Assembly: GCA_036785375.1 (NCBI GenBank)
Contig: JAWMAR010000471.1
Span: forward strand, 620,001-684,000
Length of the DNA: 64,000 nt
DNA from: Leucoraja ocellata
Taxonomy: Eukaryota
Direction: 5' to 3'
Below the pieces are notes generated by a model. That model worked only from the letters and a program-made list of their open reading frames with translations. It was not told where the DNA came from and did not search any database. A program made the translations under genes and the position numbers. Below, piece after piece: positions 21,231 to 52,513 of the stretch. Position 1 is the stretch's first letter. Every line of letters begins with the position of its first letter.

Positions 21231-21263
21231 ATTAATATCCCGGTCTCTCCCTCTGTTCTGCAG

Positions 21264-26303: not shown

Positions 26304-26342
26304 CACACTGGTGCAAATGTGCCGCGGGCTCGAACAAAATCC
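26304..26342 (+). other. 23-RSS of V1
   Basis: CACACTG + 23 bp + ACAAAATCC. Confidence 0.9.
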
Positions 26343-26367
26343 CACCTTCGGTCTTTGTCATAATCGA

Positions 26368-26381
26368 TCGCTAGAGGGCGC
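26368..26381 (+). promoter_or_regulatory. CTCF-like motif downstream of V1 RSS
   Basis: TCGCTAGAGGGCGC vs core consensus CCASYAGRKGGCRS; 25 bp after the nonamer. Confidence 0.55.
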
Positions 26382-26754
26382 ACTTAGTCATAAAACAGAA
26401 AGGGCTGCCTCAATAAAAGATAGCTCTAGACATTCGATTTTAGACCTTAGAGATACTACGCGGAAATGGATCCTTAAGAACACCGATTACCCGCGGATCA
26501 TCCCACACAGTAACACTATTCTGCACACCAGGGACAATTACAACTACTGGGACTGAACAATGGCGCTCCTTATACGACTGGTTTACACTTGGACTGCATC
26601 TGAGATGGTTCTCTGATATGTATCTAAGCGCTCATGTGCATTGAACGGCATATTAAAATGTATTTCACTGTACCTCGGCACACGTGACAAGTAAATACCA
26701 TACCACACCAATTTACAATGTTTAGCGAAGCCAATTAATCTAAAACCCTGTGGC

Positions 26755-26935
26755 ACACAAAAATTCCGGATAAACTCAGCGGGTGCAGCAGCATCTATGG
26801 AGCGAAGGAAATAGGCAACGTTTCGGGCCGAAACGTTGCCTATTTCCTTCGCTCCATAGATGCTGCTGCACCCGCTATGTTTCTCCAGCATTTTTGTGTA
26901 CCTTTGATTTTCCAGCATCTGCAGTTCCTTCTTAA
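26755..26935. repeat. Penelope-derived palindromic repeat
   Basis: About 50-bp perfect inverted arms centred near 26827. Confidence 0.7.
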
Positions 26936-27584
26936 ACAATCTACAACCCTCTACCTTGTGTGTGGGACGTAAGCAGAGCACCCGGTGAAAACCTACGCAA
27001 TCACAGGGATATAGTACAAACTCCGTGCAGACGGTACCCGTGGTCAGGATCGAACCTGGAGCTCCAAGGCAGCAGCTCTACCGCTGCGCTATTGTGCTGC
27101 CCCCTTATTCGCCTGGAGGTAAACTGCAACAAACAATCGGGTTGTTTTCGGATGTGAATAAGTCCGAACAGTTTAGTCTGTTGACCAACACAGAGATATT
27201 CAGATTTTTTCAAAAATCTAACCGTCTCATAATTCCCTTCGCATCGACCTGGTATCGCTTGGTGATATTTATTAAATTTATTTATTGAAAAGCACGGACT
27301 CCTGTATTTAAAAAAAACCGTCTGCTTGAAGCACTGAAAGGAAGTACGGCAGCGAAGAAGCAATGTATAAAAGGATATTGTACTGTGTGCTCCACGAATA
27401 AATTTGGAAGATACGATCAATTGTGACCACACAAAAACAGTACTTGACAGTCCAAGGTACACAGCATTGCTGGAGAAACTCAGCGGGTGCAGCAGCGTCT
27501 ATGGAGCGAAGGAAATAGGCGACGTTTCGGGCCGAAACCCTTCTTCAGACTTGAACCCAGTGATTGACAGTCGTTGGTCGCGTG

Positions 27585-27912
27585 CCTGCGCAGCGGTTGA
27601 GTTGCTGCTATACACCCGGGTTCTATCCTGGCTATGTACAAGCTGTTGCACGAAGTTTGTACGTTCTCCGTGACCTGCGTGTGCTTTCTCTGGGAGCTAT
27701 AGTTTCCTCCCACACTCTAAAGATGTACAGATTTGTAGGTTAATTGCCTTGGCATGATTGTAAAATTGTCCCTAATATGTGTGGATATCTGCCCCCCTGC
27801 TGGATCGAAGGGCCTGTATCTCCAAGTTAAAGTATCTCTAAACGCTGTATCTCTAAACTAAACTACACTAAACTAAACTAAACTAAACTAAACTAAACTA
27901 AATTAAACTAAA
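27585..27912 (+). mobile_element. tRNA-derived SINE (HE1-like) with (ACTAA)n tail
   Basis: Degenerate A/B boxes, CR1-like 3' end; related to 45817-46130 (+) and 42225-42545 (-). Confidence 0.7.
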
Positions 27913-28360
27913 CATATAACCATATAACCATATAACAATTACAGCACGGAAACAGGCCATCTCGGCCCTGCAAGTCCGTGCCGAACAACTTTCCCTTAGT
28001 CCCACCTGCCTGCACTCATACCATAACCCTCCATTCCCTTCTCATCCATACGCCTATCCAATTTATTTTTAAATGATACCAATGAACCTGCCTCCACCAC
28101 TTCCACTGGAAGCTCATTCCACACCGCTACCACTCTCTGAGTAAAGAAGTCCCCCCTCATATTACCCCTAAACTTCTGTCCCTTAATTCTGAAGTCATGT
28201 CCTCTTGTTTGAATCTTCCCTATTCTCAAAGGGAAAAGCTTGTCCACATCAACTCTGTCTATCCCTCTCATCATTTTAAAGACCTCTAGCAAGTCCTCCT
28301 TTAACCCTCTGCGCTCCAGAGAATAAAGACCTAACTTATTCAACCTATCTCTGTAACTCT
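27913..28360 (-). mobile_element. CR1-clade LINE 3' fragment
   Basis: ORF 27996-28433, FFTQRVVAVWNELP. Confidence 0.85.
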
Positions 28361-28825
28361 GTAACATGGTTCTCCCTCGATCATAGGAACTGACGCTGTC
28401 TGCCGGCGCATTCGAGAGTATCAGTATGATCACAAATCAAATCGGTTAAATTACCGATTATAAATTCGGTATGGTAACGAATTTCAGATGTCTTTTCTCA
28501 GAAATCCCCATTGAAACGACTTACATCGGGTCATTTCCTTCAGCTGTGTGCGGATGAAAGGCAAGTGTGGATTATAAGGCATGCTCGCCCTCTGTTGGCC
28601 CGCCATGGGAATTTCGCTACACCCATCTCCGCCCTGCAACCGCACGTTCCGCCTCTCACGCAGTATCCAATCGATGTCATCTGATGATGGCCCCGCCCAT
28701 CTCTCGCCTTTGGTTCTGTCGCTCTGTGAACATGTCGTGCCTTTGTCTTTGGGAGCCAGCTGCAGCCGGTCACTGGTTGGTCTTGGTTGGTTTTACAGAG
28801 TGTTAGTTTGGACAGAGTGTTTCAA

Positions 28826-28901
28826 ATGATGAGCAGCTACAGATTTATACCTATTATTGTCGGACACCTCCTCCCGCTGTTCATTACCATGTCACTTCTC
28901 A
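28826..28901 (+). CDS. TCR V2 leader exon (MMSSYRFIPIIVGHLLPLFITMSLL)
   Basis: Homologous to V1 leader, A|gtaaga donor at 28902. The codon at V1's ATG position is ATT, so an upstream in-frame ATG is assumed. Confidence 0.7.
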
Positions 28902-29036
28902 GTAAGATATTTCTTGCCCGTAAAAAATGCTATCTTGCAATGAATGTCGTAACCTAATTGTTGACAGTGGAAGGTTAATACCTATGCTGCTTCACGCAAA
29001 GACGCTAATCGTGCCATTGTCACTATTTTCTCTTAG

Positions 29037-29340
29037 ATTCGACACATCAAAATACAGTGGAACAATCCGAAGCAGAAATGACGTTCGAAGAGGGAAGGAA
29101 TGTCACACTATACTGTGCCCTGAAAACCAGTGATACAACGCCATATGTTTACTGGTACAAACAGCGCCCAGCTCACTCTCCACACTACCTGCTTCAGGTT
29201 CTGGGAAATATTGTATTAAGGAACCAGGGCGTGACCGATCGCTTCTCTGCTACGTTCAATAAAACTGCGACGATGACCGAGTTCATGATACGCGACCCCG
29301 TGATGTCTGATTCCGCCCTGTACATCTGCGCCATGAGACG
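29037..29340 (+). CDS. TCR alpha/delta-type V segment V2 (family I), V exon
   Basis: Acceptor ttttctcttag; VEQ...VTLYC...VYWYKQRP...DSALYICAMR; followed by a 23-RSS. Confidence 0.93.
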
Positions 29341-29379
29341 CACACTGTTGCAGACATGCTGCAGGCTCGAACAAAAACC
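29341..29379 (+). other. 23-RSS of V2
   Basis: CACACTG + 23 bp + consensus nonamer ACAAAAACC. Confidence 0.93.
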
Positions 29380-29461
29380 CACCCTCTGTGATCCCCATGA
29401 GCGTTCGCCAGCGAGCGCTCTTAAACAAAACGGAGACATTTTGGAGAAATAGGAAGGAAAA

Positions 29462-30500
29462 TGTAGATTGGTTATTTCCTACTAGCCAGTTACAATTCTT
29501 CTTAGTAGTTACTCCGCGTATTGTGTACTTTCGGTGTCAAAATTGCAACTATTTCCATTCTACGGGTCGTCAGTTCTGTGTTGCTTATGACAACGCCTGC
29601 AAATTCTGCAAGAAGTTAAACCACTTCGCTCGGTGCTGCCGTTCCCGTGTGAATCCAGCAGCTTCAAGGACGAGCCTGCACCTGCTACAACATTGTTGAT
29701 AATGACTTCCAAGAGCACCACATCGCACCACGCCCAGATCGAAAAAGAATTGTTCGCAGTGGTTTTCGCCTGCACGAAATTCGATGACTTTAGGTGATTA
29801 GTGGGGAAGATGAGGGCACATGGTATTGGGGGTAGAGTGTTGACATGGATAGAGATTTGGTCGGCAGACAGGTAACACAGAGTAGGGATTAACGGGTCCC
29901 TTTCAAAATGGCAGGCAGTGACTAGTGGGATAGCGCAAGGCTCGGTGCTGGGACCGCAACTATTTACAACATACATCAATGATTTGGATGAATGGATTCA
30001 AAGTAGCATTAGCAAGTTTGCAGATGACAAGATCGCTGGGTGGCAGTGAGAACTGTGAGGAGGATGCTATGAGAATGCAGGGTGACTTGGATAGGTTGGG
30101 GGAGTGGGCAGATGCATGGCAGATGAAGTATAATGCGGATAAAGGTGAGGTTATCCACTTTGGCAACAAAAACAGGAAGGCAGATTACTATCTAAATGGC
30201 GTCAAGTTGTGCAAAGGGGAAGTACAACCGCATGTGTTATTAACAGTCCACCTATATTGCTTAGCCACTGGTGCTTCTTTTGTTTCTAAAGGAAAGATGT
30301 AGATTGGTTATTTCCTACTAGCCATTTATAGTGCGTGTTAGAAGCGACTCCGCCTAGTATGTGCTTGATATTATCAAGTGCTTGCCTATGCTAGTTGGTA
30401 TGAGTAGTTCCTTGGAACTGTAATGTCCTACAGACCCATGCTGTAAGTAGATTTAATAAACATGTGTGATATCTTGATATGTGTTCGACTCGGCTCATTC
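29462..30500 (+). mobile_element. Internally deleted Ty3/Gypsy LTR element with nested CR1 fragment (about 29795-30230)
   Basis: Direct repeat TGTAGATTGGTTATTTCCTACTAGCCA at 29462 and 30298, purine tract before it, gag knuckle CKFCKKLNHFARCC and RNase H motif AQIEKELFAVVFAC. Confidence 0.68.
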
Positions 30501-30975
30501 AGATTCAATTTTTAATTGTCATTGTCAGTGTACAGTACAGAGACAACGAAATGCATTATAGAAAGGGTACTTATTCGCTTGGAATAAAGTGTGCCAAAAA
30601 GCAGGAAGACTGGGATTGTTTTCAATATGTAAATTCGTGCGAACGCTGTTGTTCCCAATGTTCAACATCTTGATATTCCGATGTGGAACTATACCTTGTA
30701 CGACTCGGAAATGATTTGCATTGACATGGACTCCGTTGCTGATCTATGTAAATATCTCTACAGTCTCCCACGGACTCTTGTATATTTCGAAACCCGCCTG
30801 CATGAAGAGTGGAAGTAAGTACGACAGTAAGCAGGGAGATCGTGAGATGGATAATGTATTTTCATCAACACATTGTGCCAGCAATAAAGTTGAAGGACAA
30901 GACCAATCGCGATCTCAGGACGGCAGCAAACGCACTTCATTAGAGTTCTATCTCAATTACACGGCTGACGGCTTC

Positions 30976-30989
30976 TGCTGACGTCAGCA
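30976..30989. promoter_or_regulatory. Perfect C-MARE/CRE palindrome
   Basis: TGCTGACGTCAGCA. Confidence 0.4.
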
Positions 30990-31210
30990 AGACAATCCAG
31001 AAAATAACATCATCAACGGGACCGCTGGGCACCACGGGGGGTAGAATGTATCCTCAATAAGGATGGGGAAATGGCTATTTAATATTTAGGAATATGTGTT
31101 TACTTTGTATTATAGTGGTGGGTTTATTTGTATTTTTGTATGTGTTTTTGTAAATAGATGATTAAAATTATTTTTGGTTAATAAATAAAGAGACGTCGTT
31201 CGCGGGCAAA

Positions 31211-31339
31211 NNNNNNNNNNNNNNNNNNNNNNNNNNNNNNNNNNNNNNNNNNNNNNNNNNNNNNNNNNNNNNNNNNNNNNNNNNNNNNNNNNNNNNNNNN
31301 NNNNNNNNNNNNNNNNNNNNNNNNNNNNNNNNNNNNNNN
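31211..31339. other. Assembly gap (129 N)
   Basis: N run. Confidence 1.
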
Positions 31340-31655
31340 TATACTTTGAAATGTTTCAGAAACTCGTTGCGTCAAAGCCAAATAAAGGTGTTGAGTAAAT
31401 GCTCCTCTGACCAACAACGCTCATATTTGTCAAAACGTAGAAAGTCGAGTTGACGGAATTTTATTTTGCAATTTCCTTCCGCTAAGATATACACTTTTAT
31501 CTGTTTCCACAAAGTTTCAACAATTGCTTCCAATAATGTGACAATAATACTACAAACCCTGAAGCGCAATTGACCCGACCATTTTTAATTGTAATGTAGA
31601 CTGAAAATATCCTTCCCTTTATGAACCCTTCGTACAATTGTATTTGTCTTGACTA

Positions 31656-32563
31656 TTATTTGAACAGTTGTCTAATTATGTTGAAAGGGTATTGGATAGT
31701 TGTCTTCAGCTGTTGTCTGAATTTAGTCTGAGTCCCCGCATAGATAAATGTGTTGGCGCAGGAACTGAGAAACTGCAACATATATCCGCCTTCTTGAAAT
31801 ATGAACTTCGGGTCATTGGAATTAGAGGCGCTGACATAGTTATTCGCTGTGATTTGCACAAATAGAAAATTTGCAACGTCCGTGGCCCAGAGCAGAATAA
31901 AACAGCCCGAGATGGCGAAGAGCAAAATGATGGACTTTCTCCTGCTCTGCATCTCTGGGTCCCTCTGTTTCTCTCCGTTGTTCTGGGCCCGAAGTCTACC
32001 GCGAGCTCTGTTGGCGGCCAGGATATATCTGACCGTCAGCACATTGAGCATCAAAATCAGTAAGAAAGGAACGCATGGGTTTAACATCCGGTGCGACCAT
32101 TCATACACTCTCCAAGCGACGGAAGTATAAAATATTTCTTTTATGCTGCAGAACCAGGGCACTGTATCGATAATGTACATCGGTTCAAATTCAAAATAAA
32201 ACGGGACGTTTCTCAAACAGGCGAGGAAGCAAACGGTTCCAATAACAACGGCCGCGGTTTTCTCGGTGCAATACCTCAGTTTCAGTTGTTGGCAGCAGAT
32301 CGCCACACACCGATCGAAGGTGAAAGCCACCGTTAACCAAACGGAAGCATCTTTAGCTGCGGAGCTGAGCGCAATGATCAGACTGCAACCCGGCGTGGTG
32401 GATAAGATACTAACTGGAAAATAAATCGCCCGAAGGCGGCTGAATATCACAGCCGTGACGATGACCAGGAAATCTGTCACCGCCATGAATACCAGGTACC
32501 GAGTGATGCATTTCGAGAGGCCGCACTTTCCCTGGGACAGAATGGCAATCGTCAGGACGTTAG
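31656..32563 (-). CDS. GPR139/GPR142-like GPCR 'D', exon 2 (intact; 325 aa spliced)
   Basis: Acceptor ttttccttgcag ending at 32564; 7TM ORF with the same family motifs (DRC variant of DRY). Confidence 0.93.
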
Positions 32564-32869
32564 CTGCAAGGAAAAGAGTGGGATTATGTAAATAATATCT
32601 ATCGGTGATCTCTTCATAACTGGCTTTTGGGAGCAGACGTGCAATCCCATATCGTTGCAACGAATGCAGAGCGTGAAGCGGTTATTGGTTTGATGGTTAC
32701 TTGTTTCTGATATCAAATGGCCACGCGAAACCGAGCTCTACGGCCTATCGCGTGCACTACGATGGACATAATTGCGCAGTCTTATGAATTTCACTGCCTG
32801 GTATAATTTACGTGGTATGTATATTTGTGCGTGTTGCCTGTCATGCTGTTGCAAGCACGATTTTTATGG

Positions 32870-34343: not shown

Positions 34344-34498
34344 TACCAAAGCTGCCCCGTGTAAAATTCGCAATTTTAAGAGCAACGATAAGGGACAAAT
34401 TATGGAAAATTGTGGTGCAGAACCGAAGACTAAGGCGGCCGGAGCGGAACATATCAGATGACACGGTTACGTATTTATCAACTCTGGCGAAGCCTTAC

Positions 34499-34568
34499 CT
34501 GGAACACCGACGACTGCAAGGATTGTGTAATAAGTGGCGAAGATTGGCCCGTTTCCAGGCGCGTGCAT
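34499..34568 (-). CDS. GPCR 'D' exon 1 (MHAPGNGPIFATYYTILAVVGVP)
   Basis: 70 nt, G|gtaagg donor; homologous to exon 1 of B and C. Confidence 0.88.
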
Positions 34569-35094: not shown

Positions 35095-37200
35095 ACCGTC
35101 ATAAAGTGATACAGCGTGGAAACAGGCCCTTCGTCACAACTTGCCCACACAGGCCATCACATCCCCAGCTAAACTAGTCCCACTTGCCACCGCTTGGTCC
35201 GTATCCCTTCAAACCTGTCCTAGGCATGTACCTGTCCAACTATTTCTTAAACGACGGGGTAGTCCAAGCCTCAACTGTCTCCTCTGGCAGCTTGTTGCAT
35301 ACATCCAACACCCACTGCTTGAAAAAGTTACCGCTCGGATTCCTACTAAATCTTTTCCCGTTCACCTTGGTCCAATGTCCTCTAGTCTTCGATTCCCCCA
35401 GTCTGGACAAGGGACTCTGTACATCTACCCGATCTATTCATCTCATGATTTTGTACACCTCAATAAGATCATCCCCATCCTCCTATTCTACATGGAATAG
35501 GGACCTAGTCTACACAATCTCTCTCTATAGCTCGCACCCTCTCATCTTGGCAAAATCCTCGTAAATCTTTTTTGAACCGTTTCAAGCTTGAAAATATCTT
35601 TGCTATAACATGGTGCCCAGAACTGAACACAATATTCTAAATGCGGTTTCATCAACGTCTTATAGAACTGCAACATGACCGCCCAACTTCCATATTCAAT
35701 ACTCTGACTGATGTAGGCTAAAGTGCCACAATTCTTCTTGACCACCTTATCAAGCTGCCACTTGACCTTCAAGGAACCATGCACATGTACTCCTTGATCC
35801 CACTGCTCCACCACACTACCAGGAGGCCGACCATTTACTGTGTATGTCCTGTACCTGTTCGACGTCCCAAAACACTTCACACTTCTCTGTAATAAATTCC
35901 ATCAAACTTTCCGCCGCCCACCTGGTCAATCGATCCAGATGCTGCTGCAATACTTCACAACCGTCTTCACCATCTGAAAAACCACTCACTTTTGTATCAT
36001 CAGCAAACTTGCTAATATTTCCCTGTATGTTCTCATCCAAATCATTGATGTTGATGACAAACAGTAACAGGCCCAGCACCGAACCCCTGAGGTACATCAC
36101 TAGACACAGGCCTCCAGTCTGAAAAGCAATCATCCACCATCACCCTCTGCTTCTGCCCATTGAGTCAATTTATTGTCTATATAGCTAGCTCTTCTTAGAT
36201 ATAACCTTTCAGAACCTTACTTAAATTCATGTACACAACCTCGACAGCACTACCCTCGTCGACCTTTTTGGTCACAACTTCAAAACATCACTCAGATTTG
36301 TGAGACACGACCTGCCACGTACAGACCATGTTGACTATCCCTACTCAACCCTTGCCGATCCAAATGCTTTTATAACATGTCCATCAGAATCCATCTCTCG
36401 TAACTTTCCAACTACAGATGTTCAGCTCACTGGCCTAGAGTTCGCAGCATTTCCCCTGCAGCCCTTCTTGAAAAGAGCCACAACATTTGCCACCCTCTAG
36501 TTTCCCGGCATCTCTCTTGTATTTAAGGATGGCTCATGAATTTCAACCAGGGCTCCCGCAATTTCCTCTCTAGTTTCCTGCAATTTCCACGGATATATCT
36601 GATAAGGCCCTGGAGGGTTGGCTACCTTCATACACGACAGTACCTCCAGTACTGCTTCCACGGTAACACTGACTGCCCTCTAGACCCTCCCATTGACTGC
36701 CCCCAAGTACCTCGGCCTATTGTCTTTCTCCTCGGTCAATACAGAGGAGAAATATTCATTGAGGACTTTGTCCATCTCCTGTGGCTCCACACAGAGGTGA
36801 CCGCTTTGATTTCTGAGAGGTCCCACTCTCTCTCTAGTTACCCTTTCCCCCGTATGCGTTTATAAAATATTTTGGGATTGTCCTTAATGCTTAACGCCAG
36901 AGCTATCCCCTGGCCCATTTCTGCCCTTCTGATATCCTTTTTTCAGTTTACTCCTTAGTTCCCGAAAGTCCTCCAAGGTTCCACTTGATCCCTGCTGTCT
37001 ATACATGTGCCATGCATCCTCCTTGTTCTTGAACAACGCCTAAATTTCCCTCGTCAGCCAAGCTTCCTTACATTTTCCTGATTTGCCTTTCTCTCTAACG
37101 GGGACGTACAGATCCTGAGCTTTTAGATCCGCACAGATCCGCACACTTTTAAAAACATCCCACTTAGCCGATGTTCCTTTCCCTCAAATAACATGCTCCA
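35095..37200 (-). mobile_element. Degraded CR1-clade LINE ORF2 fragment
   Basis: GSVLGLLLFVININDLD...SKFADDTK and PHLEYCVQFWAP motifs. Confidence 0.87.
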
Positions 37201-37559
37201 GTCAACTCCAAGTATTCTTTGTTCAAGTTTTTTAAAGGCTGTAGTTGCTCTAGGTAGCCGAGCAACACGTGTGAGCTGGTTCCATGAACCCATAGCCCGT
37301 TGTTTGCAAAGGTTGCCCTCCGATACATTTTTACACGTTTCCCTTCCCACCGTTATCTCTCACCTCTTGTCTTCGGCACTCGACTCTTGTACAAATTATA
37401 TCATCATCCGCCTTAACTGAGTTTGGAAATGGCCATCTATTCAAGAGGGATCAGCAATCGGGTAGCAAAGGTGACAGCCCAAGGAGGTTGTTCGTAAATA
37501 TATATAATTAGTTCTCCATAGCTCTGTTTAAATAAAAAACATACAAAGTTCATTATGAA

Positions 37560-38335
37560 TGAATTAATGCATGAATAAGTTTATTGGCCAAGTATTCACA
37601 TACAAGGAATTTGTCTTGGTGCTCCGCCCGCAAGTGACAACGACATACAGTGACAGTTAGGAATGACACACAATACATTAAACATTAATAATAACCCAGA
37701 TTCAGATTCAGATTCAGATTCAATTTTAATAACAACACATTATTGATTAAACATGTTAATTAAATCAAACACCAGAGCAAAATGAGGTTACAGATTTTTG
37801 GTTATTGAATAGAGCTACTGCTCGTGGGAAAAAAAAAGTTGTTTTTATATCTGTCTGTGGCAGCTTTGACAGTCCGGAGTCGCCTTCCAGAGAGAAGTGA
37901 TCCGAAGAGGTTGTGGTTGTGGCCAGGGTGAGAGGGGTCAGAAATTATCTTACCCGCTCGCTTCCCTGCCCTTGCAGTGTATAGTTCATCAATGGAGGGA
38001 CGGTTGCTGCCAATAGCCTTCTCAGCTGATCGGACGATTAGCTGCGGCCTCCAGATGTCGCGCCAAACCAGACCATGATGGTTAAGGTGAGGACAGACTC
38101 TACGATGGCCGTATAAAATTGGACCATCATTACCGGTGGCAGATTGTGCTTCATCAGTGCCGCAGGAAGTACATACTGTGTTGTGCATTTTTGACCGTGG
38201 AGTCGATGGTAGCCCCCCATTTAAAGTCCTTGGAGATGATGGTTCACAGGAACTTAAAATACTCCACATATGTGACTGTGCTGTTGTTGATGTTGAGTGG
38301 GGTGTGGGGAGAGGGACCTCTCCAAAAGTCTAAAT
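37560..38335 (-). mobile_element. Rex1/Babar-like LINE 3' fragment
   Basis: FYTAIVESVLT and SDPSHPGH...LLSGRRLR motifs; related fragment at about 13625-13910. Confidence 0.75.
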
Positions 38336-38595: not shown

Positions 38596-38634
38596 AGTTA
38601 TTGTACGAGTCTACACGCCGTTACCAACACTGTG
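38596..38634 (-). other. 23-RSS of V3
   Basis: CACAGTG + 23 bp + ACAATAACT. Confidence 0.9.
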
Positions 38635-38934
38635 CGACTGCACAGTAATACATCGCCGTGTCAGACAGCCGTAGTACCGAAATAGTCATCTGATATGTTT
38701 TCGTTGACTGCTGAATTTCGTCAGAAAACCGCTCACGAGCGAAATCCGCCTTCTGGTCATACCGTCCGTCAGTGTATCTCCGGAGCAGAAACTCCGGGTG
38801 ACCGTTGGGGTACTGGCGGTACCAGAACAAGTTGTAACCATCCTTGGCAAAGGTGCATGTTAAAATGGCGTTTTCCCCCTCTGTATGTGTCAGAGAAGTC
38901 TTCTCTTGGGTCACGGAATCAGCATCACCCCGAC
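38635..38934 (-). CDS. TCR alpha/delta-type V segment V3 (family II), V exon
   Basis: Acceptor ttgcag; DSVTQ...AILTC...LFWYRQYP...PEFLL...LSDTAMYYCAV; followed by a 23-RSS. Confidence 0.93.
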
Positions 38935-40186
38935 CTGCAACGCGTTAAACGGAGCGTTTATTTGACTTAAATCATCAAAAACTGACCTCAAAAGACCGTG
39001 AACGAATATGTGACAACAACAATTGTATTTACGGCAGATAGTCAGTCCTTGCATATCTCACAGACGGGCAAGTTTATCCTGACGCTCACTTCCTCTTTCG
39101 TCCCAGTGCACCGCCATCGATCACACACCAGTGTCCCCCCGAGTTCTATTCTGGAATCTGTTTGATTTATTTATAATATTTAGCTCTATAATCCCGTGGT
39201 GTGGAGCCGTTACATATTTCCTTGACAAAGAACATTCTGTCCGTTCCTGCATGATTTACCGGCATCCATAGAATCAAATAGACATAAAAGAGACCATGAA
39301 AGAGGTCGCCATTAAAGAGACCTTTCGACCCAACTCGTCCTTGACAACTATGGTGCCCCATCAACGTTGGCCCCAGTGACCGCGATAGGCGGACGTCTCT
39401 TTATATCTTCCCCCCTCGATGTACCTGTCCAAGTGTTTTTCAGATGCCCATTATATAACCATATAACCATATAATAATCACAGCACGGAAACAGGCCATC
39501 TCGGCCCTACAAGTCCGTGCCGAACAATTATTTTCCTGCCAATTCCTGCAATTATAGAACCTGCCTCAACTACCCGGCAGCTCAAGTTCAATCTAGTGAC
39601 CACCCTTTGAGTAATACAATGCCCCTTAGATTACTCTAAAATGACTCCGCTTAGATCTGCATCTAGATCTAAATCATATTGAACCCCTTTCTCTTGGTGA
39701 AAGAAAACGGTGCATTCATCCTATCTATTTTCATTATAATTTAATGCACCTCCATAAGTTCAGCTCTGCGCTTCAAGGAATAAAGTCCCACACTGGCCAA
39801 GCTCTCCATATATCTCAAGCGATCAAATTCGGGCAATGTCGTTGTAAACCATCTATACACGCTTTCAGGGAATGGGTAAACCATCTATAGACGCAGTCCA
39901 GCAGAATGACACCCTTCCCGTAGCATTCTTCCCAAACAGAACACAATGCACGGAATGCGGCTTAGTCACCCATCATACATTTTGAACACGGAATTTCAAC
40001 GCTACGGAGCTACAACTCTTCCAATGTCGATTGAATTGCTCGTTCAAACTCTTAAACATATTTTTCTTACTGGAGACGCAGAATACGTGTTGGATTGTAG
40101 GTCTGGTACAACAAATGAGCTACAGCAGTTGACCGAAGCCATCTTTCTGCAAAAACGCCGCTGTTTAATACAATGAAAATTCTTAC

Positions 40187-42037: not shown

Positions 42038-45000
42038 GTTTCTCTATCAAAACACTGCGTTGCTGGCCGAGCAGTAACACAGCCAACGTCTGTCTGCGTT
42101 GTATGTAATCGTGTGGATATACATTTCATGTAGAGAGGAGCGACACCGGGCGCTATTCCTGCTATTGGGCCGAATGGCCTACTCCTGCATCTATTTTCTA
42201 TGTTTTCTATGTTTATTAGCTGAGGATAGTTTTTAGTTTACAGATATACCGCGGAAAGGGGGTATTTTGTCCCACCGTGTCCGCGGCGACCTTGATCCCT
42301 TCACACTAACACTATCCTACACATACTAGGGACACATTTAAATCTATACCAAGCCTATTAACATACAAACCAATACGTCCTATATATGGAGTGTGGAAGC
42401 AAGCCGACGATCTCGGAGAAGACCCACGCTGTCACGGGGACGACGTACAAACTCCCCACAGACAACACCCGTAGTCGGAATCGAACCCGGGTGGCTGGAG
42501 GTTTGAGCGCTCGCGGGTAGAAACTCGAGCGCCGCCCCAATGTGCTGCAGGTTACTTAACTTTCCCCTCCCCCGTCTGCTATTTGTCAGTCGCCCGGTGG
42601 CAACAATTGGGTCACAACCACTCTTGCAAATCAACAACGTCCGTCTCCAAACCCCCGCGCACAATCACCAGCTGCAGCTAACAGTTTCCGACAGTTGGCA
42701 CCAGCGCCAATCCGCCCCGCCCTCACTTCCTTCCTCTGCTCTGGCTGCGAACCGCCTTACCTACTGCAGCAGTTTGCTGCCACGGATACGTGTTGGAACT
42801 GTACGCAAGTGGTTTTGTGAAATTTGTGTTTCTAACCGGCCAGCAGTTGTTTTGGACTGCAGAGTGACCGATGCAGCAAACGGCAAAGTGACTCTCTGAT
42901 CCAACCGTTAAACATATCTTGAATTAATGATCAGCGGGTTCAATTTTAGGCGAGTCTGAGAGCGCCCGAATAACGGACGCCAGGAGACTGTCGATAATCA
43001 ACTCCACAACAGTCGATCGCTTAACATGTCCCCATCAACGTCTGTAATTGCTCAATATCTGTGTGCACGTATACACAATCATTTGTCCATGCACGGATGA
43101 TAGCAGAAAGCTACATTGCCTCCGCAAGCCATTGCCATCCGTGGAATGAATCATAATTTAATCTTACTTTAATGAACTTATGTTTTCCCATCTCTACGTC
43201 ACTGAGCGGTACCCTATTCACGAATGGCAATGGCTTGCGTAGGCAAAGTGGCGTTCTGCTATCACCTGTGCATGGACAGGCCAGATGCAGGAAGATGATT
43301 CCCGATGTTGGGGAAGTCCCAACTAGCGATCACAGTTTAAGGATACGTGGGAAGTCTTTTAGGACCGGGATGAGAAAATCATTCTTCACACAGAGAGTGG
43401 TGAATCTGTGGAATTCTCTGCCACAGAAGGTAGCTGAGGCCAGTTCATTGGCTATATTTAAGAGGGATTTGGATGTGGCCCTGGTGGCTAAAGGGATCAG
43501 GGGATATGGAGAGAAGGCAGGGACGGGATGCTGAGTTGGATGATCATCCATTGTCATATTGAATGGCGGTACAGGCTCGAATGGCCAACTCCTGCACCTA
43601 ATGTCTATGTTTCATAATAAAACAGAAAACGATGGAAATACTTAGCAGGTCAGGCGCATCCGTGTGCTGATAGACACATTTAAACTTTTACGTCAAACCG
43701 GAAAGGAGAGAAGGCACGCGCCTTGGGCTGCGTACTCCGCTGGGAGGTGGCTGATTTGGAGGCCGGGGCCGCTGAGGATGTTCTTCGTCGGGGTTCGACG
43801 TCGGAGTTCCATCATTCCCGGCGAGATGGCCTACGGGGTGCGCGGGAGGCCCCGACGAAGGGTGAACATCTGGGAAGATCAGCCAGGAGGCTGACTGGAG
43901 TTTTGTTCCTTCCCTAACTGTGGTGCCGCTGTGGGAATGTTGTGTCGTGGACTTCTGTGTTTGTGCTTTAAAAAAAAATTATGACTGTAAAATCCATTTC
44001 GTTGTCTCTAACGAGACAATGACAATAAATTGAATCCAATCCAAAGGTGGCCATAAGAGTAAATACACAAGAAACTGCAGATTCTGGAAACTTGTGCAAA
44101 ACTGAATGTGCTGCAGGAACTCAGCAGACTAAACATCATCTGGGGAGCGAAACGATAGGGTCTGAAGAACGGTCCTGGCCAGGAAAGTAGTCTGTCCATG
44201 CCTTCCACAGATGTTGCCTGACCAACGAAGTCCCTCTTTGTGATTTAGTTCAAAGAAAGCTGTACGGCCGGTGATGACGGCAGCCTTCGCCAATAACCAC
44301 GCCGACACTTGCAGTAGAGTGAAATTACGTGATATGTTTTACTTACATAAGTATCAACCGCATGGGGGCACTGTCCCTCGCCATCAAGGCGCATGTGCGA
44401 CGACGCTGGGATTGGTTCAAGTGATTCAAATGATTCAAATGATTCAAGTGCTCAACGAATATCAACTAATTGGACCCAGCTGTAACCAATCTCAGATCGA
44501 TCAGTCAGCGACAGGGATCAGAGCAGCAGACAAGGCAGGGGGCGCCGTTACAAACGGCGTGTCACTTATTGGGTAAAAACCAAGGCACAGCCACCATCCC
44601 TCTCCTCCAAAGTTTCCTCCAACCGCCCCTACCGCTCCACCCCCACGCCCCATCCACACACCCCCTCCCCCCCCCCCCCCCCGCCTCCCACATAAAACAG
44701 GCTAAAGAACACTAAAAACGTACATGTAACACATACTGTCAAACACAATGGAAAGAAAGGACAATCGGACTGTAGGCGAGGCAGCCATTGCTGGCGCCAC
44801 CCGGTGGAGCAATAAAGCAATCCATCGAACCAACAAGGTGCATGTATGATTATTTTCCAATAGTTTACAGCGGAAGTTGTATTCCCACCTTTCCTTCCCC
44901 ACCATATCTATTTTTCGACACAATCGTTTTTAGCTGTTTGCAATCTACCGATGTACTGATTCCGCTGTCTTGCGCAGAACTAACACAGCCAGTCATTTCA

Positions 45001-45221
45001 TTTTCAGCAGCCGCTTTCCTTATCCGGCATGTGGCCGCCATTAAACGCGGATAATACAAATCCCCATGTCCATGCTGGAAGCCTTTTTAATAGCGACAAA
45101 TACACTATTTGGCCGTTTCCGTTATTCCACTTATCAAGTACAATATTGTAATGTTCCTGCGTCAGTGTCTCGGCCTCTGTTGTAAGCAGCGCACATGCTG
45201 CATGTATTGGAAATCTCCGGC

Positions 45222-45260
45222 AGTTATTGTACGAGGCCCCAGCCCACTCCCATCATTGTG
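45222..45260 (-). other. 23-RSS of V4
   Basis: CACAATG + 23 bp + ACAATAACT. Confidence 0.88.
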
Positions 45261-45564
45261 AGCCTCAGTGCACAAAGATATACCGCCGTGTCAGACAGCT
45301 GCAAATCCGAGATTGCCAAATGATACGTTTTGCTTGAACGCTGAACGGAATCAGAAATACGGGTCCGAGCGAATTCTGCCTTGAAATCTAAATTGCCTTC
45401 GATGAAACGCCCGACCGCAACTTCCGGTCGCTTGCTTGGGTACTGGCGGTACCAGAATAAGGAAGAAATATCGCTGGTGTATGTGCAGACTAAAGTTGCA
45501 GTTTCTCCTTCTGCCCTTGTCAGCGGGGGATCCCTCTGAGACACAACGTTTCCATTGCTCTGAC
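45261..45564 (-). CDS. TCR alpha/delta-type V segment V4 (family II), V exon
   Basis: Acceptor tgttccag; VVSQ...ATLVC...LFWYRQYP...LQLSDTAVYLCAL; followed by a 23-RSS. Confidence 0.92.
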
Positions 45565-45816
45565 CTGGAACACAGTTGAAACAAGCGTGACATGGATCAT
45601 TAGATTGGACTTAAGTAATGCTTGCAGGATTTGGGTGTGGGAGATTGCAACCTTCACGTGGTCCGCCCTGTTTCAACGAGTGCAATGAACCTGGCGTGCC
45701 ACAATCAAATAAGATCAAATAGAACACGTTAGCCTACAACTTTAGACTGTGCACGCCATACGCAAGAATAAGAAGTAGCAGGATTCGGAGCGGTCAATAG
45801 CTGTGGAAAAAATATA

Positions 45817-46130
45817 GGGCGGCACAGTGGTGCAGCGGTAGAGTTGCTGCCTTACAGCACTTACCTGGGTTCGATCCTGGCTACTGGTGCTTGCCTGTAC
45901 GGAGTTGGTACGATTTGTTCCCGTGACCTGGGTGGGGGTCTCTCCGAGCACTTCCGTTTCCACCCACAGTCTAAGACGTACAGGTTTGTAGGTTAATTGG
46001 CTTGGTATAAATGTTTTTAAATGTCCCTCTTGCAGGATGGCATTAATGTGCGGGGATGGTTAGTCTGTGAGAACTCGGTGGGCCGAATGGCCTGTATCCG
46101 CGCTGTGTCTCTAAACTAAACTAAACTGAA
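45817..46130 (+). mobile_element. tRNA-derived SINE (HE1-like)
   Basis: GTGGTGCAGCGG A box, GGTTCGATCC B box, (CTAAA)n tail. Confidence 0.78.
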
Positions 46131-46944
46131 CTTGCAGAGTAGAATTGTGATTCATGGGTAAATAAGAATGCGCGAGCATCAATCCCAGGACATACCTCCA
46201 CACCTCCCTTTGACATAGTCAACTTACATTCCCACATTTCACTCGCAGTGACCACCTATTTATACTGTGCCTGATACACTATTTGCATGAGTTTGTAACA
46301 CTACGAAAAGCCACCCAAGCATTCCACATAATATTGTTCTCCTCTATATCCCGCTGGGTTTATCAGTTATGTGATATGTAAAACCATAAGTTGAAATTAG
46401 AACACAGAACAGAGAAGAGTGTAGCACATAAATAGATCCTTCAGCGCACAATATCCGTTTCGAGGATGACGTAGATAAACGAATCTAATTTGCCGCTTGT
46501 ACCGTTCCCTGCCTAGCCACGTACCTCTCCGTAAATCCTTAAATGCCACTATCTTACACGGCTCGACCACCGTACCTGTTTCATGTACACAGCACACACT
46601 GTGTAAAAACAATACCTACACTACACCACTGCTTGAAATTTCGTACCTCTCACCTTAACACAACCCCCTCTTATTCTCGGGATTTCCACCCTGGGAAAAA
46701 AAATGTTCCCACAGGCTATGCGCCTCGTAATTTGATGTACTCCTACAATGTCTCCAGCTTTCGACATTCCCGAGAAAACATTGCAAGTTTTTTTCAACTT
46801 CTCCTTATTGCTAATCCATGCAGCATGTTGGTAAATTGATACTGAGCTGGACCCTTTTCCTCTATGCAACACCTTGATTAGCTGTTTGCTTACTGGAGAA
46901 TACTACCGCATTCATTCTGGTGGTAATAATCGAATGGCGATTAT

Positions 46945-49200
46945 AGAGACATAGAGTGATACAGTGTGGAAACAACCCGTCTGCCCAATTTGCCCACATC
47001 GGCCTACAAGTCCCAGCTACATTCGTTCCACCTGCTCGCGTTTTGGCCATATCCCTCCAAACATGACCTATCCATGTACCTTTCTAACTGTTTCTTAAAT
47101 GTTGTTATCGTCCTTGCCTTAACTACCTCCTCTGCCAGCTTGTTCCATACACCCATCACTCTTTGTGTGTAAAAGTTACCTCCTGTTAAATCTTTTCGCC
47201 TTGACCGAAATCCATATCCTATGGCCCTCGATTCACCTACTCTGGGCAAGAGACTCTGTGTATCTACCTTGTCTATTAATTTTGTGATTTTACGCAAGTC
47301 AACAATATTAGCCCTCATTCTATTGCGCTCCAAACAACGGAGTCACAACATACTCAATCTCCCCCGACAGTTCAGACAATCTAACCCTGGAAATATCTTT
47401 GTCAATCTTCTCTGAGCCCTTTTCAGCTTGACAACACCTTTCCTATAACATGTTGCCCGGAACTGAACACAATGCTCTATGTGCGGCCTTATCCACGTCT
47501 TATACAACTGCAACATGAACTCCCAACGTCTATACTTAATACTCTGACTTATGAAGGCCAATATGCCACACGCCTTGCGCGACTCCACAATCATTGAACC
47601 ATGCACCTGTACTCCAAGATCCCTCTGCTATACAACATTCCCTGGATCCCTAGCATTCATTGAGCAGGACCCGCCCATGTTCGACGTCCCAAAATGTAAC
47701 GCCACACATTTCTCTGTATTAAATTCCATCAACCATTCCTCAGCCCACCTGGCCAATCGATCAATATCCTACTGCAAATTTGCACAACCATCTCACTGTA
47801 TGTAAAACTACCCATTTATGTTTTATCAGCAAACCTGCCAATCTTGCCGTGTATGTTCTCATCCAAATCATTGATATAGATGAGAAACAGTAACGGGCCG
47901 AGCTCCGAATCCTGAGGCACACCACTAGTTACAGGCATCCAGTCCGAGAAGCCTCCTTACGCCACCACCCTCTGCTTCCTTCGATGAAGCCAATTTTCTT
48001 TGCATTTAGCTGTCTGTCCTTGGATCCCATGCGATCTTACCTTCCAGAGTAGCTTATCTGTGCGGAATCTTGTCGAATGCTTTGCTGAAGTCCATACATA
48101 CAATATCTGTAGCTTGGCGCTCAACGACCTTTTTGGTCAGGTCTTCCAAAAAAACACAATCAAATTTGTGAGACACGACTTCCCACATTCTCACTATCCC
48201 TAATCAGCCCTTATCCGTCTAAATGCATGTACATCTTATCCGTCAGAATACTGTCGAGTAACTTTCCAACTAAAGATGTTGAGCGCACTGGCCTTCAGTG
48301 ACCAGCTCCTACCCTGCCGCCCTTATTGAATAGAGTCACAACATTTGTCTCCCATCAGTCTTCCGGAAGCTCTCCAGCATTTAAAGACGACTCGTAAATT
48401 TAAACCAGGGCTCCCAAAAATAACCTCTCTTGTTTCCCCACAATGTCTTCGGATACATCTTCGGTTATTGTCCAAAAAAGTCTTAATGTGTTATCCATTT
48501 AATTTCCTCGTGGGTCAGAGGTTTCGAATCGTGCACTATGCTTTGTGCAAAGTTGCAAAAGTGGATAAGTCGTTGAGTCATGGATCTGTGCGGAACGGAA
48601 ACAGACCAATAGACAATAGACAATCGGTGAAGGAGTAGGCCATTTGGCCTTTCGAGCCAGCACCGTCATTCAATGTGCTCATGGCTGATCATCCCCAATC
48701 AGTACCCCGTCCCTGCTTTCTCCCCATATCCCCTGACTCCGCTATATTTTAAGAGTCCTATCTAGCTCTCTCTTGAAAGCATCCAGAGAACCGGCCTCCA
48801 CCGCCCTCTGAGGCAGAGAATTCCACAGACTCACCACTCTCTGTGAGAAAAAGTGTTTCCTCGTCTCCGCTCTAAATGGCTTACTCCTTATTCTTAAACT
48901 GTGGCCCCTAGTTCTGGACTCCCACTACATCGGGAGCATGTTTCCTGCCTCTAGTGTGTCCAAGCCCTTAAGAATCTTATATGTTTCAATGAGATGCCCT
49001 CTCTTCCTCCTAAACTCCAGAATGTACAAGCCCAGCTGCTCCATTCTCTCAGCATATGACAGTCCTGCCATCCTGGGAATTAACCTTGTAAACCTACGCT
49101 GCACTCCCTCAATAGCAGGAATGTCCTACCACAAATTAGAGGACCAAATCTACATACACTACTGCAAGTGTGGTCTCACTAGGGCCCTGTACAACTGCAG
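46945..49200 (-). mobile_element. Two CR1-clade LINE fragments in the V4 leader intron
   Basis: 46945-48460 and 48605-49200; RT C-terminal motifs and 3' tails. Confidence 0.82.
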
Positions 49201-49614
49201 AATTAGGAAGCCTTCTTTGTCTATTCTGATCCATTTGGCGAACTGGGATGTTTTCATTTGCATGTATTTACTCCATAGTTATCCAAAGACTTCTTATCCA
49301 TATGTCTGGCCAAATATATTTTAAAAGTAGTAATTCTATCCTCCAATAGCTTCTACTGGCAAAAATCTAAACTAAAAACAGGAAATCCCGAAACACTCAC
49401 CAGGTCAGCCAGCATCCGTGGCAGAAAAAAAACACAGTTAATAATTCACAACGCTTCGTCAGAACAAGGAAAACGAATCAAGCCCCTTTTAAGTTGCAGA
49501 AATGGCGGTGGAAGGACGGACAGTTCTATAAATGTTTAACGGGGCATCTGATTTTTTTTAATGTCTTCTTTTTGACGATAAACCAAACTTCATAAAAAAG
49601 ATTTATTGTCTTAC

Positions 49615-49657
49615 CGATAATCAGTGCAACCAATGTAACGGGTGCAAATAGTTGCAT
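49615..49657 (-). CDS. Probable TCR V4 leader exon (MQLFAPVTLVALII)
   Basis: 43 nt hydrophobic peptide, G|gtaaga donor, phase 1 giving II-GQSNG; about 4 kb of mostly repeats separate it from the V exon; AATGACATCA decamer-like site upstream. Confidence 0.68.
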
Positions 49658-50834
49658 TTTAACTGCTCGCGGATAGTGTGATCGTTTGAGCGTCAAATTC
49701 GTATAGATAATCTCGCAACTGTTGTTGCAATAAGAAGTACAAATAGCTGAGTACATTGGCTGAAGCTGGACTGATGTCATTTCCGTGCAGAACACCAATC
49801 AAAAGGATTCCACTGCGGTGAACAATTAATCCAATACATTTATATTTATTTAGAACAACTCCCACAGTTATTAATGACAGAGAATAGTTAAACCTGCGTC
49901 ATTAAACACATGGCTTCCACTGTGTTCTTTTCCACCAGATACAGTTAGGTAAAAACGTGAGACACAATTCGCAAGTTGACAAAGCCAACTGGACGCAAGT
50001 ACTTTGCGGGGCGAAGAACGCTGCAGTATAGGAGAGTCAGAGGGGACATTCGGTATGTGATGGCGCTCTCCAAATAACAACTCATGAGAGGATATCTCGT
50101 TGATTGTTTCAGTTTTATATCGTGGTAGAATGGTAGGAATGCTTCAAAAAAGACAGAGTAAACTCGAAATAAGGTTGTAATGAGATGACGGTTGTATTAA
50201 TGTAGTGAGAGAGAATGGGGGAGTGAACCATTATTTATGAAAAAGGTGTGGCTCGTTTTAAAGATTTTGGCTAGCTCCATCTGCTGGCGACTTAGTATCA
50301 ATTATATTGAGCTGCATCGTGGAGTTCGTGGCACTGCAGTGCACGGCGGAGTAGGATGTTGGTCTTTTACCAGTTGTTCCCTTGGTTGGCTTGTTAGTTT
50401 CGTGCAGCGAACGGGCGAATCGTTTAAATCGTTTGACTACAGATAATACAGCTACCAAAGAAGCTCACGTCGCCTGTTCCCGTCGCCCTTTCCTCACCTG
50501 TTTCCTAAAATACATCTCCCTCAAGAAAACAAATATACAGCTATTTCTGGAATTGAGTTTTCGATAGTAAACTCCTTGGACATCATTTACTCCCTGCCCT
50601 CGATTCGATCACTCTTTATATTAGTGATTTCTCGGACACTGGTCTTTATGTCAGTGGTGATTAGCAGTAAATAATCCCATCACAATCTATGATCTTGGGT
50701 GATATTTGCCGCAGTGACGGCAAAAATACTTCGCGGGCTATTCGCATCCGTGAAACGCTTCATAATTCCTACCGTTCACGGTATGTCTTCGACACATAGG
50801 CGGTAGCCTGCGACATTTTAAATAATTGACTTAG

Positions 50835-51578
50835 GGGAAGTACAACGGTGATCAGGGTGGTCCTTGTACATCGGTCTATAAAAGTAAGCATGCCGGTACA
50901 GCAGGCAGTGAAGAAAGCGAATGGCATGTTGGCCTTTATAACAAGAGGAATCGAATGTAGGAGCAAAGAGGTCATTCTGCAGTTTTACGGAGACCCTAGT
51001 GAGACCACACCTACAGTATTGTGTGTAGTTTTGGTCCCCTAATTTGAGGAAGGACCTTCTTGGTATTGAGGGAGCCCAGCGTAGGTTTACAAGGTTAATT
51101 CCCAGGATGGCGGGACTGTCATATGCTGAGAGAATGGAGCAGCTGGGTTTGTACACTCTGGAGTTTGGAAGGATGAGAGGGTTCCTCTTTGAAACATATA
51201 AGATTGTTAAGGGTTTAGACACGCTGGAGGCAGGAAACATGGGGAGTCAAGAACCAGGTGCCACAGTTTAAGAATGAGGAATAAACCATTTAGAACGGAG
51301 ACGACAAAACACATTTTCGCAATGAGAGTGGTGAGTCTGTGGAACTTTCTGCCTCAGAGGGTGGTGGAAACCGGTGCTCTGGATGCTTTTAAGAGAGAAC
51401 TAGATAGGGCTCTTAAAAATAACGGAGTCAGGGGATATGGGGAGAAAGCAGGAACGGGGTAGTGATTGGGGGTGATCAGCCAAGATCACATTGAAAGGCG
51501 GTGCTGGCACGAAGGGCAGAATGGACTACTCCTGCACCTAGTGTCTATTGTCTATTGTATATTGTCTATTGTCTATTG
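50835..51578 (+). mobile_element. CR1-clade LINE 3' fragment
   Basis: KKANGMLAFI...QRRFTRLIP; (TGTCTAT)n tail. Confidence 0.83.
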
Positions 51579-52436
51579 ACTTTGTTTGCGTTCCATGAAA
51601 ATACCGTCGACGATATCCAACCGGGAAGGTATGTATGAGAAGCGCTACTATCTTGCTCAAGATTTGCACGTGGATTATCCAGTGAAATTGGCTTTTGAGT
51701 CGATTTCGTGGAAAACAAAACTGACGCTCCGCTTCTGAAATAGAAACTACGCTCTCGCGGTTACCAAAATTGCAATGCCACCTACAGGTAAGTATAGGCA
51801 TCGACATAAATCTATTCATTTGGGGGAAAACGAGTGTTGGCAAAGTAGTAGCCAAAACTAATCCTTGATAGACACAAAAAGCTGGAACAAATCAGCGGGA
51901 CAGGCAGCAACTCTGGAGAGAAGAATGCGTGACGTTTCGGGCCGAAACCTTTCTTCAGACGTCTCGACACGAAACCTCATCCATTCCTTCTCTCCAGGGA
52001 TGCTGCCTGTCACACTGTGTTTCTCCAGCTTTTTGTGTCTACCTTCGGTTTGAACCAGCATCTGTAGTTCCTTCCGACACACATTTAATCCTCGTCGTGT
52101 GAGATCATGATGGGGCGGCCCCCTTTGGACTGTTAGTGGAAAAATGCAACGGACAGACCCAGGGACACATTTTTCTGCAATATCGGTTCCTTTTGCACTC
52201 GCGTACCTGCAGGAGTTTCAGCTATATGCACTAGTTGCATCTACTTTATCGGGATAGGTTCGATTAATTGCTAGTTTCGAACCCCCTAGAGCAAATGTAT
52301 TTGAAAATTCCTTTGAAAACCGTTGAAACAATTAGCGATCGATAAGGATCATGTAGCGGACTGCACAGTGTACCCAGGGGAACAAAGAATGCCGTGTTTT
52401 TCTCTATATCGTGTCTTCTTGTTCCTTTGGGCCACC

Positions 52437-52450
52437 TCGCCCCCTGGCGA
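52437..52450 (-). promoter_or_regulatory. CTCF-like motif downstream of V5 RSS
   Basis: TCGCCAGGGGGCGA, 24 bp after the nonamer. Confidence 0.55.
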
Positions 52451-52474
52451 GTGCTCACGAGATTGGAAATGGTA

Positions 52475-52513
52475 AGTTTTCGTTCGGGTCCGTTACACGT
52501 CGGTGGCAGTGTG
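52475..52513 (-). other. 23-RSS of V5
   Basis: CACACTG + 23 bp + ACGAAAACT. Confidence 0.87.

Follow-up and report, generated by a model that had tools for sequence, protein, structure and literature searches.

The V genes of one elasmobranch TCR alpha/delta family probably carry an RSS-associated CTCF-binding element that is ancestral to the family, was copied with the V gene, and was then either selected or left to decay; comparing sequences, we give this reading a probability of roughly 0.6. The family was found in a 64,000-nt stretch of Leucoraja ocellata contig JAWMAR010000471.1 (the window), which contains three intact members, V1 (25827..26303, +; leader 25827-25872, V exon 26000-26303), V2 (28826..29340, +; leader 28826-28901, V exon 29037-29340), and V5 (52514..52994, −; leader 52994-52949, V exon 52817-52514), all with GT..AG introns and open spliced frames. 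Each is followed by an RSS with a 23-bp spacer: that of V1 (26304..26342, +) has one mismatch in the heptamer and one in the nonamer, that of V2 (29341..29379, +) has a perfect nonamer, and that of V5 occupies 52475..52513 (−). The split leader, the V-set exon, this type of RSS, and the fact that the closest solved relatives are TCR alpha/delta chains agree with the earlier note, which had seen here a chondrichthyan TCR locus, and by sequence comparison V1, V2, and V5 are paralogues of one TCR alpha/delta V family. Alpha and delta are not separable in the window, where D, J, and C segments were sought and none was found. The V genes are flanked by, and interspersed with, five GPR139-like genes or relics, and the GPCR genes of the window are possible clients of its stronger CTCF-like sites.

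A CTCF-like 14-mer had been described behind each of these RSSs. We re-found it at 26368-26381 (+), 29405-29418 (+), and 52437-52450 (−), always on the strand of its own V gene and 25, 25, and 24 bp past the nonamers of V1, V2, and V5 (RSS starts 26304, 29341, and 52513). As 19-mers, the sites span 26365..26383 (+), 29402..29420 (+), and 52435..52453 (−), starting 22, 22, and 21 bp past the nonamer. When 127,234 window positions were scanned with a JASPAR CTCF matrix, the V1 site scored 13.8 bits (p = 5.9e-6, rank 9) and 12.7-15.0 bits under four alternative backgrounds, under all of which it passed the cut of 8 that has been applied to skate ATAC peaks (PMC10115646). The V5 site was borderline (9.1 bits, rank 20; 7.4-10.7 bits depending on the background, the lowest value being that of the uniform one), and the V2 site, whose G-rich core has two changes, reached 2.4 bits (p = 7.7e-4, rank 134; 0.8-4.6 bits by background). 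Thus, the claim of a CTCF-like motif at all three genes stood for V1, was marginal for V5, and failed for V2, which was rejected as a functional CTCF site for its sub-threshold score. Nor do the three sites count as independent observations: since the genes are paralogous, they represent one inherited site arising from a single ancestral event. All eight window sites that score above V1 are located elsewhere in the window. The published consensus (as quoted in the available part of PMC6746451), with two mismatches allowed, matched the window 15 times, 9.6 matches being expected by chance; among the sites behind the RSSs it picked up only that of V1, and V5 has three mismatches. The second-family genes V3 (38596..38940, −; RSS 38634-38596) and V4 (45222..45570, −; RSS 45260-45222), whose exon starts are approximate, served as internal controls. 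No motif at p ≤ 1e-3 was present within 500 bp behind the RSS of V3; the top nearby motif of V4 scored only 3.0 bits, at +35, and a 16.4-bit site lies at +411.

The comparison of the paralogues indicated that the motif is more conserved than the adjoining spacer and flank, although the sequences are few, the linker is partly conserved too, and close relatives are uninformative. Identity was 55-59% in the 22-bp linker (random 45 ± 8%; p = 0.08-0.19 each) and 63-74% in the 19-mer (p = 0.002-0.035). Behind the 19-mer, two scattered blocks reached p = 0.023 and the others were near random, in line with the earlier statement that the surrounding 3' flanks have diverged; the blastn homology stops at 26386/29423 and 52438, that is, at the motif end. 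An orthologous contig (X12) differs from the V1 region by 53 changes over about 1,090 bp. Among the changes listed, none falls within 26365-26381, and one at 26382 lifts the V1 motif score to 15.6, but the conservation of the motif was not significant (P = 0.43). In two further sets (X15 and X18), compared with the V1 region over 40 of 176 rows, the linker of one X18 contig carries a net 7-bp insertion, so the spacing is not strictly fixed. The degenerate V2 site recurs as the same read-through peptide in the near-identical protein P0002. One 224-bp piece from run X17, a small contig set, spans the RSS and the motif and leaves the promoter, the intron, and most of the exon uncovered; despite resembling an enrichment peak, it was not counted as one, because uncovered regions prove nothing and a random piece covers the motif 21% of the time. 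No common restriction site accounts for its ends. A transposon origin of the motif was also rejected, as none of the other copies in the window covers it, and an Rfam search gave no match.

Evidence from other species was obtained from predicted gene-model proteins whose reading frame continues across the RSS, in which we looked for a CTCF-compatible peptide, the DNA being back-inferred from the peptide. Four of the eight family-I proteins were unusable (three apparently spliced, one too short). When the entire tail was scored on both strands, the strongest CTCF-compatible peptide of the horn shark protein P0031 (XP_067869992.1; 9.9 bits, p = 0.00095) and that of the bamboo shark protein P0021 (GCC20494.1; 5.0 bits, p = 0.0087) fell at the V1 and V5 offsets (gap 21 in both); P0014 gave a weak signal (1.0 bit, p = 0.035), and the combined p value of the three is 3.7e-5. 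Scores of at least 5 bits at a gap of 20-24 were found in 2 of 5 family-I tails versus 0 of 60 other tails (p = 0.005). When P0031 was compared with V1, five of six motif codons matched, followed by only 2 of 23 after the motif (p = 0.001), and its post-motif flank showed no sign of descent from V1 or V2 DNA. A CTCF-like motif is therefore apparently present at the same RSS offset in horn shark and bamboo shark, as judged from the peptides. Word-indexed protein searches yielded no new family-I members, and no family-I loci were found in viral, prokaryote, or metagenome contigs.

These data bear on the possibility that a mediocre match arose once by chance, was duplicated neutrally with the V genes, and is now decaying. 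From the window alone, a V1-level site on the same strand within 60 bp of any of the five RSSs has a chance of about 0.02, and such an origin would agree with a degenerate V2, a borderline V5, the non-significant conservation among close relatives, and the remaining linker similarity, including a P0021 linker that still resembles that of V2 (4-5 bits). However, the offset has been retained in V genes that are only 41-45% identical, while the flank past the motif has become random, and we regard this explanation as very improbable.

The motif could instead be read by another GC/CpG-reading factor, or be a CpG-rich stretch kept for some other reason that merely resembles a CTCF site. All three window copies begin with TCGC, where the consensus has CCAC/G, and keep their CpGs; the non-consensus T4 and G6 that they share lower the score by 4.5 bits. 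The V2 19-mer is 74% identical to that of V1 yet fails the matrix, and the CpG observed/expected ratio is 0.8-1.1 at the RSSs of V1, V2, and V5 versus 0.75 window-wide. On the other hand, the differences among V1, V5, and P0031 fall on matrix positions 7, 8, and 11, each of which tolerates two bases in the CTCF matrix, the one used in this comparison; the chicken FII site likewise has CGC at these positions, according to the available part of PMC6746451; and a teleost counterpart carries a textbook CTCF motif. These observations make a different factor quite unlikely. Lamprey, chicken, and human share a nearly identical CTCF motif (PMC5504073).

The teleost counterpart is an RSS-linker-CTCF cassette common to three fish loci (L001, L020, and L032; 14.7 bits, gap 31), and the identity of L001 and L032 stops just past the motif. 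In teleost V tails, strong hits (at least 11 bits) numbered seven forward and none reverse over 3,134 offsets per strand, with 0.4 expected, at spacings other than the family-I offset. Among fish DNA flank groups, 21 of 24 had no site of at least 11 bits within 60 bp, and the forward enrichment was not significant (p = 0.08). On a V tree from which the domain filter left out five labelled rows and P0012, the near-CTCF label was unclustered (9 changes; as few or fewer in 81 of 500 shuffles), so we do not claim a single origin.

The predicted element resembles the CTCF-binding elements (CBEs) of mouse proximal VH genes (7183, Q52; the VH81X CBE) and the human RSS-associated IGH sites, and the mouse Igh and Tcra facts cited in the earlier note were confirmed from the literature. 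According to the available parts of PMC6746451, PMC4914699, and PMC6439775, there too the motif lies just behind the V RSS nonamer, the spacer length is kept while its sequence is looser, the sites are limited to some V families and, as we read the source, have the same orientation relative to the V, and one V carries a decayed copy (mouse VH5-1 there, V2 here). In contrast, those loci are IgH rather than TCR alpha/delta, the distance to the same core position is 17-19 bp (mouse) and 19 or 48 bp (human) versus 22-23 bp here, the VH consensus lacks the CpG at matrix positions 5-6, and the putative sites described here follow V genes of both orientations. In the consulted parts of the mouse Tcrb reports, two V-proximal CBEs lie near an RSS (PMC5859386), and Trbv1 is likewise a TCR V gene carrying a CBE of its own, which anchors loops and supports orientation-independent synapsis (PMC10772921); few genes are involved at that different locus, whereas a family-wide fixed offset across species is inferred here. 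The mouse Tcra/Tcrd V-region CTCF sites belong to the same locus type, but, in Table 2 of PMC5859386, most lie upstream of promoters or between genes, and none is listed at an RSS. Promoter-side motifs are also present here, at V2 (28583..28601, −; 14.3 bits) and V5 (53210..53228, +; 12.9 bits); unlike those of mouse Tcra/Tcrd, they point against their V genes. V2, for which the earlier note predicts lower usage, thereby has a promoter-side motif that is missing at V1, besides its perfect nonamer.

Could the sites near the V genes act as insulators? The five GPR139-like genes or relics, the many CTCF-like sites in other parts of the window, and the intact frame of V2 despite its poor site would suit this role. 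Nevertheless, an insulator would not need an RSS offset held within 1 bp in two sharks, and at mouse Igh V usage is governed by this very arrangement (PMC6439775); we consider insulation unlikely.

Under the preferred reading, that of an RSS-associated element, the motif would already have been present in the family ancestor when the lineages leading to horn shark, bamboo shark, and this animal separated, and V, RSS, linker, and motif would have been copied as one unit at each duplication, with selection retaining the motif at V1, probably at V5, and decay at V2. CTCF would bind the predicted element in thymocytes, keep the adjoining RSS in open, positioned chromatin, and stall or anchor cohesin there, making RAG likelier to find that RSS. 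By analogy, the CpG at matrix positions 5-6 could render the predicted binding sensitive to methylation. The sites do not point one way toward D-J-C along the locus, since V1 and V2 lie on + and V5 on −, so that inversional joining is unavoidable for at least one of the two groups. RAG scanning is incapable of inversional joins (as stated in the consulted part of PMC10772921), so an Igh scanning pause cannot serve both V1 (+) and V5 (−). Thus, of the Igh-like layout proposed earlier, the kept offset held, at the peptide level in two sharks, and the scanning pause for both genes did not; local access, together with loops anchored for synapsis by diffusion in the manner of mouse Trbv1, would be likelier.

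A broader reading, possible though doubtful, is that the RSS-coupled CTCF site would be an ancient device in general use at jawed-vertebrate antigen-receptor loci, present at shark, ray, and teleost TCR alpha/delta, spread between V families as a cassette, working at inversional V genes and so not by linear RAG scanning, lost from mammalian Tcra, and kept at Igh. RSS-adjacent CTCF sites have so far been regarded as a mammalian Igh feature: the paper that defines them covers mouse, human, chimpanzee, and rabbit (PMC6746451), and our literature search found no report of them in fish. The sequences suggest that a layout familiar from mammalian antibody genes would go back much further and be far more widespread. 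Inversional joining has been inferred for teleost TRAV genes (PMC8559430), so a fish model could separate local access or looping from scanning. Should CTCF prove to occupy these sites at fish TCR alpha/delta V genes and to act there, its control over V choice would be at least as old as early elasmobranchs and would be tied neither to IgH nor to deletional scanning.

The window carries five V genes, each with a 23-bp-spacer RSS: V1 (RSS at 26304, plus strand), V2 (29341, plus), V3 (38634, minus), V4 (45260, minus) and V5 (52513, minus); a search for a J motif across the window found none. The best solved relatives of V1 are TCR alpha/delta domains, and the spliced frames of V1, V2 and V5 are open. 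In a 59-row tree these three genes fall in one supported clade (10 rows, support 95/84) with horn shark, bamboo shark and devil ray as named members, and V3 and V4 pair outside it. This placement makes the animal an elasmobranch; it is likely a batoid, on weak tree support (80/89 with the devil ray), and the repeat tails in the window seem skate-like.

The earlier note had described a CTCF-like 14-mer at a fixed distance behind the RSS of each family-I gene. Re-measurement confirmed that the 14-mers lie 25 bp (V1, 26368-26381), 25 bp (V2, 29405-29418) and 24 bp (V5, 52437-52450) after the nonamer, each on the strand of its own V. Using a reconstruction of the JASPAR MA0139.1 matrix (column sums 908-913) over 127,234 window positions, we obtained 13.8 bits for V1 (p=5.9e-6, rank 9), 9.1 bits for V5 (p=5.9e-5, rank 20) and 2.4 bits for V2 (p=7.7e-4, rank 134); four alternative backgrounds gave 12.7-15.0, 7.4-10.7 and 0.8-4.6 bits, respectively. 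A skate study applied a threshold score of 8 when scanning with this matrix (PMC10115646). The genome-wide CTCF consensus, as quoted in PMC6746451, matched V1 alone of the three, with 15 matches in the window vs 9.6 expected. By score, the proposed motif is clear at V1, borderline at V5 and degenerate at V2; the 400 bp that follow the RSSs of V3 and V4 contain no match at p<1e-4. In the window alone, a V1-level site would occur by chance within 60 bp of any of the five RSSs with a probability of about 2%. The three copies count as one ancestral event, so that the case from the window alone is modest.

The lower usage of V2 predicted from its degenerate motif is a weak expectation, because the V2 nonamer is the better one and a CTCF-like motif of 14.3 bits (28583-28601, minus, opposite to the V) lies on the promoter side of the gene. 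A similar promoter-side motif accompanies V5 (53210-53228, plus, 12.9 bits, opposite to the V) and none was found at V1; hence V1 has the RSS site only, V2 the promoter site only, and V5 both.

Local homology between V1 and V2 stops at 26386/29423, and that with V5 at 52438, in each case at the motif end; V3/V4 homology stops 12 bp past the nonamer. Identity among V1, V2 and V5 is 63-74% in the 19-mers, 55-59% in the linkers and near random in the flanks beyond. Part of V1 was present in at least 20 sequencing runs under seven organism labels; four of the runs were compared, with 40 of 176 substitutions and 12 of 29 indels listed. A contig from run X12 differs from the window at 53 positions over about 1,090 bp; among the differences listed, none lies at 26365-26381 and one, toward the consensus, at 26382, a sparing that by itself is not significant (P=0.43). 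The listed indels include 26351-26356, 26402-26404 and 26432, with none in the motif. The linker is 7 bp longer in one X18 contig, and an X17 contig spans the motif site with four differences, the three listed being all outside the motif.

Predicted gene models commonly continue past the RSS, making the flank readable as peptide, the level at which the sharks are known here; tails were scored by the likelihood that their codons derive from the CTCF matrix. Usable tails were available for four of eight family-I proteins. The whole-tail best score fell at the V1 offset in horn-shark P0031 (9.9 bits, p=0.00095, best of five preset offsets) and at the V5 offset in bamboo-shark P0021 (5.0 bits, p=0.0087), while P0014 gave 1.0 bit at the family offset (p=0.035), with its top score elsewhere, and P0002, a near-copy of V2, retains the degenerate form. 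Of the 85 tails with an RSS, 65 could be tested, and in these, scores of at least 5 bits at a gap (nonamer end to motif start) of 20-24 bp occurred in 2/5 family-I vs 0/60 other tails (p=0.005), counting the apparently spliced P0025 as a miss; the top non-family tail there reached 4.9 bits. P0031 agrees with V1 in 5/6 motif codons vs 2/23 codons beyond (p=0.001), and shark V domains of the family are 41-45% identical to V1. The P0021 motif may have been carried over neutrally, since its linker is still similar to that of V2. We conclude that the RSS-associated CTCF-like motif is a real feature, with a degenerate copy at V2. In the read-through peptides of P0031 and P0014, a 24-bp RSS spacer fits better than 23; by the same peptide reading, the P0031 motif stands at V1's distance from the heptamer.

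In 80 non-family tails, matches of at least 11 bits appeared at 7/3,134 forward and 0/3,134 reverse offsets (0.39-0.41 expected), and at 0/20,460 offsets of V-domain coding sequence. The seven forward matches come from six proteins, which show five types of flank (P about 7e-5); they have gaps of 15, 26, 27, 34 and 47 bp and include Danionella, Xiphophorus, Alosa, Hippoglossus and Platichthys proteins; two notothenioids gave 7.8-9.4 bits at gap 31. Fish DNA in metagenome contigs supplied 38 V-RSS loci, 29 of them distinct. Three (L001:1300-1390, L020:1288-1377, L032:37-125) have in common an RSS and linker and, at gap 31, a forward motif of 14.7 bits, which gives a DNA-level check on the peptide method. 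This cassette is near-identical across different V families, L001 and L020 sitting in different clades of the tree, and L001/L032 identity ends just past the motif, which suggests spread by gene conversion. After dropping one locus without flank and one with a spurious spacer, 21 of 24 fish flank groups showed no match at 11 bits in the first 60 bp, which counts against generality; one group has a reverse site, and enrichment gave p=0.08 forward and p=0.03 for both strands. Because the near-CTCF label does not cluster on the V tree and spacings vary, the sites may reflect either repeated gain or an old origin with turnover. Farther out (60-980 bp behind the RSS, at least 8 bits), L001-L037 have nine forward and two reverse sites, a lean resembling the bias in orientation seen across V arrays in mammals.

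Around and among the five V genes lie five genes or relics of rhodopsin-family GPCRs, GPR139 being the nearest solved relative: 2613-3594 (minus, frame-broken), 12174-13094 (minus), 21236-22171 (plus), 31656-32681 (minus, between V2 and V3) and 60536-61555 (plus). The V group may be a small cluster within a GPCR array. The V cluster is flanked by the two arms of an inverted duplication some 6-7 kb long (192-7420 vs 57763-64000, 87-93% identity), each arm containing a GPCR copy and, facing outward, the window's top CTCF motif (22.4 bits; 1425-1443, minus; 62560-62578, plus). Other strong CTCF-like sites lie at 44792-44812 (411 bp behind V4; 16.4/12.0 bits, near-palindromic), 38045-38063 (532 bp behind V3; 15.5 bits, reverse) and 50272-50290 (between V4 and V5; 20.4 bits). 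There is also a 1.5-kb direct repeat (35100-36600 vs 46950-48460, 71% identity), and assembly gaps occupy 8769-8968 and 31211-31339.

We found no report of CTCF at shark, cartilaginous-fish or teleost TCR RSSs in a search with most subscription journals outside its coverage, and CTCF does not occur in the text of the fish-locus papers checked for it; PMC4914699 calls local CTCF roles at TCR loci an open question. The distance from nonamer to CTCF core is 17-19 bp in mouse Igh and 19 or 48 bp in human IGH, in some V families only (PMC6746451), the same core position being 22-23 bp here in our alignment. Site mutation reduces mouse VH81X usage, repair raises that of VH5-1, and inversion at VH81X has a modest effect only (review PMC6439775). 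Mouse Tcra/d sites are mostly promoter-side, and two Tcrb sites lie near an RSS (PMC5859386 Table 2). Oriented CTCF motifs mark domain borders in skates, which have cohesin genes (PMC10115646).

V1 and V2 are opposed in orientation to V5. Putative CTCF binding at the family-I motif would act via local access and via loop anchoring, readings favored because inversional joins are beyond linear RAG scanning, a V-side anchor at Trbv1 allows orientation-independent synapsis (both PMC10772921), and joining by inversion has been inferred for teleost TRAV genes (PMC8559430). We give somewhat better than even odds, about 0.58, to the whole account, in which the RSS motif is predicted to bind CTCF and would act through local access and loop anchoring.
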